From: a phage
Length of the DNA stretch: 64,000 bases
Assembly: GCA_008273105.1 (NCBI GenBank)
Contig: GCA_008273105.1_4080.1
Direction: 5' to 3' (one strand)
The notes beneath the pieces are model-generated. The model was not told where the DNA came from, ran no database searches, and worked only from the letters and a program-made list of their open reading frames with translations. The position numbers and the translations under genes are program-made. Positions 19,227 through 50,923 of the stretch are shown in pieces. How positions within the stretch are numbered: position 1 is the first letter of the stretch; each line of letters begins with the position of its first letter.

Positions 19227-20666
19227 TTACATATTTTCTTCAGCAAATTCTGCAAGTGGTGAACGAACAACACCTTCTAGTTCGATGACACGACAACCTG
19301 CCCAATCTTTAAACTTCTCAGTTACATATGTCAAACCACTGTTAACAGGACTAATAAACTTACTGTCAATCTGACTCAAGTTACCCATAATTACTACTTT
19401 ACAGTTTAATCCTGCTCGTGTCAAGATTGTTTTAGCTTGTGCAGGTGTAATGTTTTGGAATTCATCAACTACTAGAATAGTGTTGGTGAATGAACGTCCA
19501 CGTACAAAGTTTAGTGCTTTAAATTGAATAACATTACGTTTCATAATCTCTTCAATACTACCTTGAGGGTTAGCATCATCTTTATGAAGAAACTCTAACG
19601 CGTCAATTGCGGCTCCACAGAATGGAATCACTTTTTCTGCTTCTGAACCTGGCAAGAAACCAATATCTTCAAACTGTGAGTCTTGAGTTTTAGAGAAGAT
19701 GATTCGGTCGTATTTACGTTTTTCCAGTACTAATTCTAATGCAGTAGCAATCGTAATTAGTGTTTTACCAGTACCAGCAGAACCTAGCAGTACTGTTAGA
19801 TGTACATCAGGATCGAGAATACTGTTGATGGCGAGTGCTTGTTGGATATTCTTTGCTTTAATATCCCATACTTTAGCACGTAAAGCTACTGATTGTCCAA
19901 TATCTTGGAATACCAAAATATCTTCTGGTGTTAGTGTTCCATCATCTTCCTCAATTGCTGATTGACCTTCGTACACAAATAATACGTCTGCATCATCATA
20001 TAGATAATCACCGATGCATAGATTTTGTGGAAGCAAATGTTCAATCAAGCTTTTAGAAATGTAATGATACAAACGACGACCAACTTGTTCGGATTGAATA
20101 TTAGTATTGGTTAAGTTGCTATATACTTCCCAAAAATTAATTTCCAAATGGTGTTGACCAATGTGAATCAAATCACTATCACCAATAACAATATCATGGC
20201 GATAATCTTGTACCTCGACACCATAACTTAGTGCTTTGATACGCATGTTGATATCACGAGTTACCAGTACTGATTCTGTTGCTAAAGCTACCAGAATGAT
20301 TTTATCATCAGGTACTGTGCTTTTGAGAAGGGTTTGAACTTTCTCTTCTGAACCTTTAGTACGAATTAGTGCTTCAGCTTCTTCGTTTGTAATAACAAAC
20401 AATTTGCTATCAGGATTCATATTGGTATGAACATCAGCAATATTAACACCAGTACTACTAATCTCATCATGTGATGCATCTGCAATAATTGCTTCAATGT
20501 TACGAATAGCAACACGAGCATCGCGTGAAACATCTACATTACGACTCTTAATTGAATCCAATTCTTCCAGTACTGTAAATGGTAGAATGATTGCAGCACC
20601 ATCAAAAGCAATAGATGCATTAGGGTCAGATAGTAGTACGTTTGTGTCAATTGTATATTTTTTCAT
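19227..20666 (-). CDS. phoH: PhoH-like ATPase with N-terminal PIN domain
   Basis: Walker A LLGSAGTGKTLITIA; PIN-like N-terminus (MKKYTIDTNVLLSDPNA...LEELD); 479 aa. Confidence 0.8.
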   Translation of the reverse strand: MKKYTIDTNVLLSDPNASIAFDGAAIILPFTVLEELDSIKSRNVDVSRDARVAIRNIEAIIADASHDEISSTGVNIADVHTNMNPDSKLFVITNEEAEALIRTKGSEEKVQTLLKSTVPDDKIILVALATESVLVTRDINMRIKALSYGVEVQDYRHDIVIGDSDLIHIGQHHLEINFWEVYSNLTNTNIQSEQVGRRLYHYISKSLIEHLLPQNLCIGDYLYDDADVLFVYEGQSAIEEDDGTLTPEDILVFQDIGQSVALRAKVWDIKAKNIQQALAINSILDPDVHLTVLLGSAGTGKTLITIATALELVLEKRKYDRIIFSKTQDSQFEDIGFLPGSEAEKVIPFCGAAIDALEFLHKDDANPQGSIEEIMKRNVIQFKALNFVRGRSFTNTILVVDEFQNITPAQAKTILTRAGLNCKVVIMGNLSQIDSKFISPVNSGLTYVTEKFKDWAGCRVIELEGVVRSPLAEFAEENM

Positions 20667-47731: not shown

Positions 47732-48265
47732 TTATTTCCTCATGTATTTTATAACGTCTTCAAATAATTGTATTTTTAAGTCCTCGTCATTTCCAGGTAA
47801 AAACTCACGAAAACTATCAAAATCTTCATTTTTTGCGAAGTTACGCATTTGTGTTGAGCTATATTGACTTACATTACGGTCAATACCTGCCTGAATTGCT
47901 TTTATACTACAAAAATTATACAACTTACCATTGTACATGTCAAGAGTTTTTTGAAAAGAATCAATACGGTCAGAACCACAAATGAAAAGAACATCTAAGT
48001 ACTTTCCATCCAGTTCTCTCATTATATCAAATAGATTGTCTTCTGTGTAGATGTTCTCTTGCACTGAAGGATAGAATCCCTCTGTATAATACATTTTTAG
48101 TTCAGGTGGGAGTGGGTTTTTTATATTGTCAGTACTGGTGCTTAGATATATTTTTAAATCAGCATTGTACTGTTCTTGTAATGTTTTGGCCTTTTCAAAA
48201 ACTAAACCATGTCCACGATGTACAGGATTAATACGACCAAACGTTAATACACATGTTTCTTTCAT
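47732..48265 (-). CDS. NMN-adenylyltransferase-like nucleotidyltransferase (HxGH family)
   Basis: TFGRINPVHRGH resembles the GRFQPFHKGH active-site motif of NadM-type NMN adenylyltransferases; 177 aa. Confidence 0.55.
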   Translation of the reverse strand: MKETCVLTFGRINPVHRGHGLVFEKAKTLQEQYNADLKIYLSTSTDNIKNPLPPELKMYYTEGFYPSVQENIYTEDNLFDIMRELDGKYLDVLFICGSDRIDSFQKTLDMYNGKLYNFCSIKAIQAGIDRNVSQYSSTQMRNFAKNEDFDSFREFLPGNDEDLKIQLFEDVIKYMRK

Positions 48266-48799: not shown

Positions 48800-49420
48800 T
48801 TAGAGACAGTTGTGTACTATCTTATCAAAAGTACTACTGTCAATGTTATATTCATATAAAAATTTAAAATGTGAACCGTAACGCATCATCAGATTAAACT
48901 CTTCTTCAGTATTGAACTTGTAATCATGAATAGTCTCAGGGGTACATTTTAAACCCAAGAATTCTATAATTTCAGATGTTACATCATATCCTGAATTGAA
49001 GTATTTAACCCAAACACATTTTCCTTGTGGGTTGTATTTTCTATATTCTCCTTCTAGTTCTCCTTTAATAATATGAGCCTTAACACTTATTGAATTATTA
49101 CTATATCTTTCTTCAAAATAATTACCATACTGGGCTTTTGATATTGTTGGTTTTTGAGTAGGAAGTAATTTAACTGAAGTCACTTCAATTCCATTTTGTA
49201 ATTCCTTTATATAAGAAATGCATCCTTTTTCTTTAATAACCACATATCCAGTAAAGATATCTTCGTCTTGTGATTGATTAATGCAATCATCAAAATTCAA
49301 AGTTTTATAAGTAACAGTTTTTTCTTTTCTAATAAATGCCATCATTATTCCTATGGAAACATCAATGAATATACGTGACGTTGATTGCATCAACATCAGT
49401 AGAATTATCATGCTACGCAT
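48800..49420 (-). CDS. hypothetical protein (206 aa or shorter)
   Basis: Track ORF; first about 25 residues probably read through non-coding sequence (internal MMAFIRKEK start likely). Confidence 0.45.
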   Translation of the reverse strand: MRSMIILLMLMQSTSRIFIDVSIGIMMAFIRKEKTVTYKTLNFDDCINQSQDEDIFTGYVVIKEKGCISYIKELQNGIEVTSVKLLPTQKPTISKAQYGNYFEERYSNNSISVKAHIIKGELEGEYRKYNPQGKCVWVKYFNSGYDVTSEIIEFLGLKCTPETIHDYKFNTEEEFNLMMRYGSHFKFLYEYNIDSSTFDKIVHNCL

Positions 49421-49439
49421 GTCTAATTCTACAAGTACT

Positions 49440-49955
49440 ATTTTCTTTTAATTAATATTGACGGGGTTTGCTTGAGCATATTTCATCCCCCCCGCAGGGG
49501 AAAGAACAAAAAAAATTTGACGCTGGTGGCCTTCACATAGTTCATATCACGAATTCTCTTACGAGACGAAAGCGGGTTGCTCTGTTTCTCTCTATCGCGG
49601 TTCTTGTAGCAACGGTCGTCGGTCTTAAACATCCCGACACATAATACAAATACCATATGACCAGTACTTGTATTTGATTTCACAAAATTTGGACGCAACT
49701 ATATTGTATAATTCCGACCGCATATTTCTTATGAAATCTCCCTTAGATAATTGGTAAGGTGCGATCCTTATATGTCTATCGAGGAACTCTCTTTATCCTA
49801 TTGGAGTTCTTTATACAGCCGCATTGCCGTGAGTGGTTCAAACTATGCCATCATCTAACGGGTTTCATCTGCTGTTCGTACTGAAAGGACTACTCATCTA
49901 CCCTCTACATTTTCGAGTGGATTAGGCTTTTAATCATTTCCTTATGGGAACCTTT
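49440..49955. other. ORF-free, GC-enriched intergenic island (candidate structured RNA or regulatory region)
   Basis: About 520 nt with no credible ORF on either strand; about 42 percent GC by hand count versus a visibly AT-richer surrounding genome; several GC-rich stem-capable segments. Confidence 0.35.
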
Positions 49956-49962
49956 CAGGATT

Positions 49963-49997
49963 AAAAAAAGGTGACTAACATATTATGTTGTCACCTT
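49963..49997 (-). terminator. rho-independent terminator
   Basis: Minus-strand hairpin ggtgacaacataatatgttagtcacc followed by TTTTTTT, just after the stop of the 50026..50880 gene. Confidence 0.55.
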
Positions 49998-50025
49998 ATA
50001 TTATATCATTAACTTATCATTTGTC

Positions 50026-50880
50026 TCAGTTATATTCGGTTTTTTCTGTGAAATTTGTTAGTATATCAACACTAAAACTTCGAATAACCTCAATCTTGCT
50101 TGGCATGAAACGGTGTTTATTTTTAATATACAACTCATCATCTTCAATAAAAGATGTAAAAATGAATGCCATATCTTCACGTGGAATTTGTAAAATATCA
50201 CACATTTCATTTGCCGATGCTACTGGTGAATCATTATAGTACTGAGAGTATGCACTAGATTGGCGACCGATTATAATAGAATTTCTGATTAGAAAATTAC
50301 TACAGTACTGAAAATCTTTGTAGTACTTTTCAATAATGTACGGCATAAGTGCTTCTTTCACGTCTTCATAACCATTAGTACTATCAATTGCTATACAGTA
50401 ATCTTCACGTTCTTTTTTCTCATGATGGTAATCATAAACATACTCAAAGAATGAATTTTTATTTAATGAATCATTTAAACCAACTGACCCACTATAGTAT
50501 GATTTTCTATCATTCATTCGATCATCTGGGCATGATGCATACATAGAAGTGTCATGTGATGATGTACCAATATAAATTTTCTTAGTAATATGATTATACG
50601 CTATGTAATCATAATCTTGAACTCCAGTCAGCATTAACTGGAACATTAAATCATCAGGAACATCAATTAACGGGTACTCAAACTTCGAATATCTACTGCG
50701 GCAGAAGTTCTTTTCAAATGCTCGGTATGCGATAAAATCTTTTAGATTTTTACAAGATTCATGTTCATGAGCACTACTGCTACGTACATTGACATTAGTC
50801 GATGTGCAATATCCATCCGAATCTTCGGTGAAGTTACCAGCATAATCCTTATTGTAGTCAACGATTAGATAAAGTTTCAT
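50026..50880 (-). CDS. hypothetical protein with FQ-motif (about 284 aa)
   Basis: Track ORF begins at a TTG inside the upstream terminator; ATG at about 50880 (MKLYLIVDY) with GGAG RBS is more plausible; contains DDLMFQLMLTG. Confidence 0.5.
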   Translation of the reverse strand: MKLYLIVDYNKDYAGNFTEDSDGYCTSTNVNVRSSSAHEHESCKNLKDFIAYRAFEKNFCRSRYSKFEYPLIDVPDDLMFQLMLTGVQDYDYIAYNHITKKIYIGTSSHDTSMYASCPDDRMNDRKSYYSGSVGLNDSLNKNSFFEYVYDYHHEKKEREDYCIAIDSTNGYEDVKEALMPYIIEKYYKDFQYCSNFLIRNSIIIGRQSSAYSQYYNDSPVASANEMCDILQIPREDMAFIFTSFIEDDELYIKNKHRFMPSKIEVIRSFSVDILTNFTEKTEYN

Positions 50881-50891
50881 ACATCTCCAGA

Positions 50892-50923
50892 CAAAAAAAG
50901 GACGAGATAACAAATCCCGTCCT
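50892..50923 (-). terminator. rho-independent terminator
   Basis: Minus-strand hairpin ggacgggatttgttatctcgtcc followed by TTTTTTTG. Confidence 0.5.

Follow-up and report, generated by a model that had tools for sequence, protein, structure and literature searches.

The DNA analysed here, a stretch of 64,000 nucleotides (nt) that we call the window, shares 99.8% identity with 121Q, an Escherichia phage (Asteriusvirus) that belongs to the Rak2-like jumbo myoviruses; position x of the window is position 242768 - x of 121Q, on the opposite strand. Our subject is a gap of about 600 nt, 49421-50025, which separates two minus-strand open reading frames (ORFs), 50026-50913 and 48800-49420 (gp415 and gp416 of 121Q), and carries no gene annotation in the records of 121Q, G17, Munch and RaK2. 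An original prediction, made from the sequence of the window, had described positions 49440-49960 as an ORF-free, GC-enriched island downstream of a strong minus-strand terminator and upstream of the Dam operon, and had proposed a novel structured RNA as one explanation. These observations hold. The gap contains no conserved ORF, and the GC content of 49440-49960 was computed as 40.3% (the hand count had been about 42%) compared with 32.9% for the whole window, at the 99.2nd percentile among windows of the same length. The terminator is a hairpin followed by seven T residues, marked as such in the annotations of G17 and Munch, and the next gene downstream, a hypothetical one, is followed by a gene for a Dam-type methyltransferase. 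As described below, the minus strand of the window from 50028 to 49452 is a gene in its own right, which encodes a large and highly structured non-coding RNA. Beyond the view of the original prediction were the minus-strand reading, the existence of a multi-copy family and the presence of copies in bacterial chromosomal islands.

A blastn comparison with phage records located the stretch in 71 records and at 284 places, 4-5 per genome, and every Rak2-like jumbo phage examined carries 4-5 copies of the RNA gene; the 64-kb window itself contains no second copy. The family is found in Rak2-like jumbo phages of Enterobacterales and Xanthomonas. 121Q has four paralogues on one strand (A to D, Table 1), related phages have five, and in every multi-copy genome all of the copies are co-oriented. 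The 121Q paralogues are 70-85% identical to one another, in blocks. With the Salmonella phage Munch the identity is about 70%, and the alignment is limited to the non-coding stretch, stopping at the flanking genes; the RNA stretch is conserved far better than the genes on either side. Site A is syntenic in Munch and RaK2, where a gp415 homologue is followed by the RNA and then by gp416-dam. A family set of 50 non-redundant full-length copies (<94% identity), assembled from IMG/VR pattern scans and an nhmmer profile, splits into five paralogue groups, and its covariation is strongly compensatory. Because there are 4-5 dispersed copies per genome, a packaging element acting in cis, one of the roles that had been suggested, is unlikely.

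Run on the full MAFFT alignment of 750 columns, RNAalifold gave a noisy result without the pseudoknots, and domain-wise alignments and an all-pairs covariation scan took its place. For the 3' core, an alignment of 26 sequences (A4) yielded a structure of 42 pairs in seven helices. In this alignment 95.9% of the cells are paired, compared with 74.2% after shuffling and 38-44% when the partners are slid by 1-3 columns. Both sides change in 33 of the 42 pairs and there are 249 compensatory cells where 66 would be expected; none of 500 shuffles attained the observed value on any of five measures. In the 5' half, compensatory double changes occur in 27 of the 43 pairs predicted by RNAalifold (18 copies). 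The alignments also bear on the strand, since 83 G.U cells were counted against 21 A.C cells and canonical pairing amounts to 95.9% on the minus strand and 90.0% on its complement. Because the G.U excess, the canonical pairing, the promoter and the terminators all agree, we conclude that the RNA is read from the minus strand.

The RNA is predicted to form about 15 helices in three domains, with two pseudoknots in an almost invariant 3' core (Table 1). In the 5' domain (D1), helix Pa shows up to six pair types per position, and hairpin Pb is 91% paired, as against 46% in shuffles. The 3' core domain (D3) is the part common to the main family and a second subfamily, described below, and a covariance model built on it (R1) recovers the RaK2 and island copies. 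In pseudoknot PK1, 100% of the cells are paired and both sides change in five of the six pairs; its variants include UUGUAU/AUACAA, UUCAUGU/ACAUGAA, GUCGAAU/AUUCGAC and UUUAUGUAG/CUACAUAAA. The crossing helices of PK2, Pm and Po, are likewise both 100% paired. Pm occurs as GUUGC/GCAAC, GUUGU/ACAAC, GUUAC/GUAAC and GUCAU/AUGAC, and Po as GAGAG/CUUUC, GGGAG/CUUCC and ACUGG/CCAGU. Many of the single strands between helices are invariant, namely GAAAAUGUA, the conserved loop of hairpin Pc in D1, and AGAUGAG; CACGGCAAUGCGGC, UAUAAAG, CGAUAGACAUAUA and UAAGGGAG in D2; GACCG; and AAACAG and CCCG, which lie between the strands of PK2. These invariant junctions, together with the double-pseudoknot core, indicate an RNA with a defined tertiary fold and not an antisense regulator.

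Three side observations concern the fold. In the window segment 49897-49876 (GAGUAG...CAGUACGA), a 3-bp covariation of G-X-A with U-Y-C, of the types U-A, A-U, C-G and GUU/AAC, brackets the 3' strand of Pa; because it is sterically incompatible with Pa it may mark an alternative conformer. A module, (U)UACAAUAUAGAUCCGUCYAAAAUU, is found in the Pj region, inside hairpin Pp or in both, depending on the copy, and looks movable and peripheral. A kissing contact between the GAAAAUGUA loop and the UACAAUAUAG module was considered and dropped; it covaries in one lineage (ACGUA/UACG) but not in three.

Every copy of the gene, the chromosomal copies included, is preceded by the motif TGRRAC-N17-TATAAT with an extended -10 TG. 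It corresponds to a promoter class called "divergent RpoD-like" (-35 TGAAACG), reported from phages CBB and GAP32, where 11 of the 18 sites lie in front of DNA-synthesis genes (PMC5259590). The window contains nine such sites, all on the minus strand and mostly with the extended -10 TG, where four are expected. Between the -10 box and the RNA body of the window copy lies the hairpin of the upstream terminator, an arrangement seen in A-lineage orthologues only. Since the hairpin starts about 5 nt past the -10 box, lineage-A transcripts should begin with a terminator-like hairpin, and its placement makes it probable that it doubles as the 5' hairpin of the RNA. It may bring about attenuation or serve as a protective 5' hairpin, or transcription may start inside its stem.

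The body of the RNA is about 485 nt long; a conserved 3' tail, whose end lies near 49452, brings the length to about 540 nt. The body closes with a U8 tract, at which most paralogues possess a full intrinsic terminator hairpin that lineages A and B lack; in copy C of 121Q this terminator would yield an RNA of about 455 nt. In the tail, the lower stem of the GC hairpin covaries (UUCAUU/GAUGAA vs UUCUAU/GUAGAA), and the motif CAAACCCCGUCAAU is a direct repeat of CCAGCGUCAAA (49529-49519), which forms the 3' side of Pq. The two copies of this repeat of about 12 nt (AYCNNCGUCAR, 49529-49519 and 49470-49452) are about 50-125 nt apart in homologues and change together across lineages, as CGUCAA, CGUCAG, CGACAA and ACGAAG. 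On the opposite strand of the tail a weak promoter-like sequence, TTGACG-17 nt-TTTCAT or TATCAT, points back into the RNA gene; as an antisense promoter (TTGACG-17-TATCAT) it was dropped, being weak and absent from the second subfamily. A short conserved ORF in the tail, after GGGGGGAUG, was also dropped, its reading frame not being kept.

Table 1. Features of the RNA gene, its surroundings and its copies in 121Q. Positions are those of the window unless another record is named.
Feature	Position	Strand	Description
Promoter TGAGAC-17 nt-TATAAT, extended -10 TG	50000..50028	-	overlaps the stop codon of the upstream ORF
Hairpin GGTGACAACATAATATGTTAGTCACC + T7	49963..49995	-	terminates the upstream gene; lies behind the -10 box and ahead of the RNA body
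5' domain D1	49881..49959	-	long-range helix Pa (CUGAAAGG/CCUUUCAG), variable hairpin Pb, hairpin Pc, invariant joiner AGAUGAG
Central domain D2	49738..49875	-	Pe (ACAGC/GCUGU), Pf, variable Pg, Ph (GAACUC/GAGUUC), Pi (AAGG/CCUU)
3' core domain D3	49519..49737	-	peripheral module (UACAAUAUAGUUGCGUCC), hairpins Pk, Pl and Pq, helices Pn and Pp
Pseudoknot PK1	49542..49660	-	Pk loop UCAUAU (49660-49655) with AUAUGA (49547-49542), about 110 nt downstream
Pseudoknot PK2	49568..49613	-	Pm (GUUGC 49613-49609 / GCAAC 49580-49576) crosses Po (GAGAG 49592-49588 / CUUUC 49572-49568)
U8 tract closing the RNA body	49508..49515	-	full intrinsic terminator hairpin here in most paralogues; absent from lineages A and B
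Conserved 3' tail	49452..49506	-	GC hairpin UUCUUUCCCCUGCGGGGGGGAUGAA (49506-49481) and motif CAAACCCCGUCAAU
Promoter-motif sites in the window	21474-21446, 28455-28427, 36171-36143, 40055-40027, 43941-43913, 50028-50000, 53496-53468; further 50879, 56856	-	TGRRAC-N17-TATAAT
Module sites	49710-49684; E. coli LR-29-1 island (L124) 20380-20420; L008, L036, L021		see text
Antisense promoter-like site	49459-49487; L009 34561-34533; E. coli LR-29-1 island (L124) 20543-20515	+ (window)	in the conserved tail
Copy A	121Q		window copy, gp415/gp416-dam
Copy B	121Q		after sigma-factor gene gp167
Copy C	121Q		flanked by the endonuclease VII gene and gp595, which lie on the other strand
Copy D	121Q		between gp515 and gp517
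Upstream gene, 121Q gp415	50026..50913	-	hypothetical; outside the RNA gene; ends at the terminator 49963-49995
Downstream gene, 121Q gp416	48800..49420	-	hypothetical; Dam-type methyltransferase gene next

Full-length copies with the promoter are also present in bacterial chromosomes, as found in one scan of a genome collection and one Escherichia coli search. In Serratia fonticola the island contains a large serine recombinase and two ParB-like genes, with the RNA at its edge beside rof and tilS. In Serratia sp. 2723 a host peptidase gene is followed by a serine recombinase and then by the RNA, and in a metagenome-assembled genome (MAG) of the Enterobacteriaceae the host genes thiM and thiD are followed by the RNA and a CI-like repressor. 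The island of E. coli LR-29-1, of about 10.7 kb, lies between ffs and ybaA and contains a tyrosine integrase split by IS3, the RNA and PDC-M45 (L124 22999-24730), a PADLOC candidate defence system with a dual-OB and a DUF488 protein and, next to them, a DUF4326 protein. Three iteron-like repeats, TATCGATCGTT, each with GATC, occur in this island about 400 nt past the RNA, within a 700-nt ORF-free stretch (L124 20940-21030). The island copies are single, and among 5,426 complete E. coli genomes two carry a copy. No blastn match, in distant mode, was found among the 72,556 plasmids of PLSDB. No protein is common to the island contexts, or to islands and phages, and hence the flanks offer no candidate partner. 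The idea that these islands are classical satellites was dropped; neither capsid nor terminase genes are present in the parts read.

The copy in the E. coli island shares 80.6% identity with one paralogue of Serratia phage BF and clusters beside the BF clade. The Serratia and MAG copies form a deep branch of their own. This separate placement suggests at least two exchanges between phages and islands. The second subfamily, known from metagenome contigs (L093, L109, L090, L107 and L113), has in common with the main family the 3' half of D2, the D3 core and also the tail; its 5' half differs (for example, GUAGAAAGAAAUGGC...GUGAGAGC...ACCAACCC), and it has an extended -10 promoter of its own. One subfamily-2 context looks phage-like (Thg1, DUF6267).

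When the 64-kb window was searched with the 4227 models of Rfam 15, there were no matches at the gathering thresholds. At E<=10, the locus, nine homologous loci and five subfamily-2 loci gave scattered chance matches, none of them recurrent and none on the RNA body. ARAGORN finds no tRNA or tmRNA gene in the window, and neither Intron_gpI nor any group-II model matches at E<=10, in agreement with the earlier failure to fit a cloverleaf or a confident group I core. Further, the copies are all intergenic, each with its own promoter and with complete flanking genes, and the helix order, Pm5'-Pn5'-Po5'-Pm3'-Po3'-Pp-Pn3', does not fit the P3/P7/P8 order of group I introns. A likeness to bacterial RNase P RNA was considered. 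The series UAGAUGAG...ACAG...AACCCG is reminiscent of a segment of M1 RNA, UAGAUGAAUGA...ACAGAACCCGG, and the sizes are similar, a resemblance that we assume to be coincidence; no RNase P model matches at E<=10, the helix order differs and the pairing partner of the ACCCG segment lies downstream (Pf) and is not an upstream P4 strand. On these comparisons the RNA, for which no matching RNA family was found, appears to be a new class, and the suggestion of a novel structured RNA is borne out by covarying helices and pseudoknots, a promoter of its own and the lack of an Rfam or tRNA match. We found no published description of the element in the literature. A 2023 screen of IMG/VR gives 10,006 unnamed candidate RNAs (PMC10690425), and a fragment of the present RNA may already be among the csRNAs of that work.

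The RNA has the attributes of the large ornate RNAs, a covariation-supported multi-domain fold and a stand-alone gene in mobile or phage DNA. Like GOLLD, ROOL, OLE, raiA and HEARO it belongs to the 400-800 nt class, with many helices, pseudoknots and invariant junctions, and is encoded by stand-alone genes in phages, prophages or other mobile DNA. No Rfam match to any of these five was found even at E<=10. It differs from GOLLD, ROOL and OLE in host range, in the 4-5 paralogues per genome and in its presence in chromosomal islands with a phage-type promoter. Unlike the ornate RNAs it is not associated with tRNA genes. Of these, GOLLD and ROOL are reported to assemble into multimeric cages made of RNA only (10.1101/2024.12.08.627333). 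A precedent for abundant long non-coding RNAs (lncRNAs) in Rak2-related phages is the jumbo phage PA5oct, in which RNA-seq revealed four ORF-free transcribed regions of 236-619 nt, ncRNA001-004, and two of these account for 1-5% of phage reads at each sampled stage (PMC7318152). Neither nhmmer --max nor covariance model R1 (at E<=1) identified ncRNA001-004 as homologues. The 3' end of ncRNA004 (L127 ~1000-1050), UUUCCUUCCCAAACGGGGAGGAAA, resembles the C-run/G-run tail hairpin of the present family.

We favour the interpretation that the gene produces a folded RNA that acts in trans, and as a whole statement we consider this probable; our confidence in the part of it that concerns a structured RNA gene is higher. 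Host RNA polymerase would transcribe the gene from the phage-specific TGRRAC-17 nt-TATAAT promoter, and the product would act as a ribozyme or as the scaffold of an RNA-protein or RNA-only particle. The defined tertiary fold indicated by the invariant junctions and the double-pseudoknot core speaks for this interpretation, as does copy C, which is a terminated unit with convergent genes in front of it. That 4-5 diverged, co-oriented copies are retained by each phage suggests that the RNA is required in large amounts. Its role is probably in conflict among phage, host and mobile elements, because islands with integrases carry the same gene together with the phage-type promoter; one of these, that of E. 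coli LR-29-1, also holds the candidate defence system PDC-M45.

Several considerations weigh against this interpretation. The folding energy of the single sequence is ordinary (z = -0.92 for the minus strand and -0.14 for the plus strand), and the case for structure therefore rests on the comparative data and not on thermodynamics or GC content. The data establish the RNA gene as such, that is, the strand, the fold, how many copies there are and where they occur. Expression and the exact ends of the RNA are inferred from promoter and terminator signals only, and the timing of expression, the action in trans and the biological role are inferences as well. The lineage-A hairpin, placed directly behind the -10 box, should attenuate the gene's own transcripts. 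Since copy A has neither a terminator hairpin nor a separate promoter before gp416, its transcript probably runs into gp416-dam, and there the RNA would also be a 5' leader. In most copies the conserved tail lies past the terminator, which a simple terminated trans-acting RNA does not explain. No protein partner or catalytic activity is known for the RNA. Finally, the dispersal and co-orientation of the copies, the promoter class, the post-terminator element and the carriage by islands are not accounted for by an RNA acting in trans, whereas the main rival explanation would account for them.

In that explanation, which keeps the replication cis-element of the original prediction in play, each copy is an RNA-primed replication origin, at which the RNA would fold and its 3' region would be held in a persistent R-loop as primer. 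A single island copy would then let the replisome of an infecting phage amplify the island. Origins of comparable design exist: ColE1 RNA II, close in size to the present RNA at about 500 nt, is an origin primer, and oriF and oriG of T4 consist of a middle promoter and a downstream unwinding element. The family resembles these systems in its layout, a folded RNA of about 500 nt that is transcribed from a promoter and has a conserved stretch of DNA behind it, in a self-contained unit that could act without an adjacent protein gene; as with the T4 origins, the promoter is of a middle type and several sites are dispersed in each phage genome, here 4-5 co-oriented copies in 350 kb. The U-run, C-run/G6 hairpin and ~12-nt repeat beyond the terminator might be required for a transition from RNA to DNA or for the loading of a helicase and would be superfluous for a trans-acting RNA. 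Nothing but the RNA gene is common to the phages and the islands with integrases, genes for RNase H and a UvsW-like helicase are present in 121Q, and the promoter class is tied to DNA-synthesis genes (PMC5259590).

Other evidence speaks against an origin. There is no sequence similarity to ColE1 RNA II or the T4 origins, and the pseudoknotted core is far more constrained than they are; with its invariant junctions it resembles a tertiary-folded RNA and not a primer. Towards an equivalent of RNA I there is at most the weak antisense promoter-like site, which is not conserved in the second subfamily. Covariation in the tail hairpin includes G.U pairs on the RNA strand, and folding at the level of RNA is therefore indicated. 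Cumulative GC skew passes straight through the locus, inspection of the phage copies by eye, with no dedicated search, showed neither an iteron array nor DnaA boxes, and the 72,556 plasmids contain no match. On balance we judge the origin hypothesis unlikely.

It is less probable still that the element is a cis-acting 5' leader of the downstream operon, gp416-dam, whether as a huge riboswitch or attenuator or as a processive antitermination RNA of the HK022 put type. The probable single transcript of copy A fits such a role, most of the other copies have an attenuator-like terminator between the RNA and the next gene, and the co-varying repeat could provide an alternative pairing. The second copy of the repeat, however, sits after the terminator and so cannot decide termination. 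The genes downstream of the different copies are unrelated, and about 500 nt with two pseudoknots is far beyond any known leader. Nor are the copies always upstream of a co-oriented gene. Copy C is a terminated unit facing convergent genes and is therefore not a leader, and the S. fonticola copy also points into convergent genes. A leader role is thus possible for copy A and fails for these two.

The original prediction had also offered a degenerate intron or a mobile-element remnant, and this finds very little room in the data. The element is repeated within genomes, island copies lie beside integrases and HNH endonuclease genes are found near two of the four 121Q copies. Against this, compensatory changes and strong purifying selection already contradict a sequence without present function. 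With 70-85% mutual identity the copies are old, and their positions, which are syntenic across genera, show no recent mobility. No host gene is interrupted, each copy has its own promoter and no group I or II intron model matches; terminal inverted repeats and target-site duplications were not specifically searched for. Least probable of all, to a degree that makes it negligible, is a small protein, such as the 71-residue product of ORF 49483-49698: this ORF exists, and in some automated annotations "hypothetical proteins" lie under the match, but it is not conserved, its homologues contain stops, frameshifts and frame switches, mismatches are equally frequent at all three codon positions with no third-position bias, indels are not multiples of three, and conservation follows long runs and paired columns.

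Some observations on annotation may be added. The start of gp416 varies among records, giving 612 nt or 543 nt. The product of gp418 (window 47732-48265) is called ribonucleotide reductase A in 121Q; the name is probably wrong, because the identical protein is described in G17 and Munch as cytidylyltransferase-like or a nucleotidyltransferase. About 2 kb of 121Q, 135194-137161 (L006 35194-37161), has no annotated gene and is not a copy of the RNA.

In more than 60 published genomes of these phages, the RNA family fills unannotated "gaps" that amount to about 2.5 kb. Tentatively, and as an idea that we think unlikely, the family may represent a new class of RNA machine common to jumbo phages and the islands that exploit or resist them, either as a ribozyme or RNA-only particle produced at the replication stage or as an RNA-primed origin module by which the transcription and replication factors of an infecting phage would switch on and amplify the islands. 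The islands do have the phage-type promoter. It is rare for a large RNA to have a defined tertiary fold, and earlier examples, the ribozymes, the riboswitches and the ROOL and GOLLD cages, opened new biology. The present family is tractable, with an RNA of about 500 nt, two covariation-supported pseudoknots and a clade of 350-kb phages that includes coliphages growing on E. coli K-12. It would allow one to ask why jumbo phages need such an RNA, and whether islands use it as a decoy, as a sensor or as a hitch-hiking origin.

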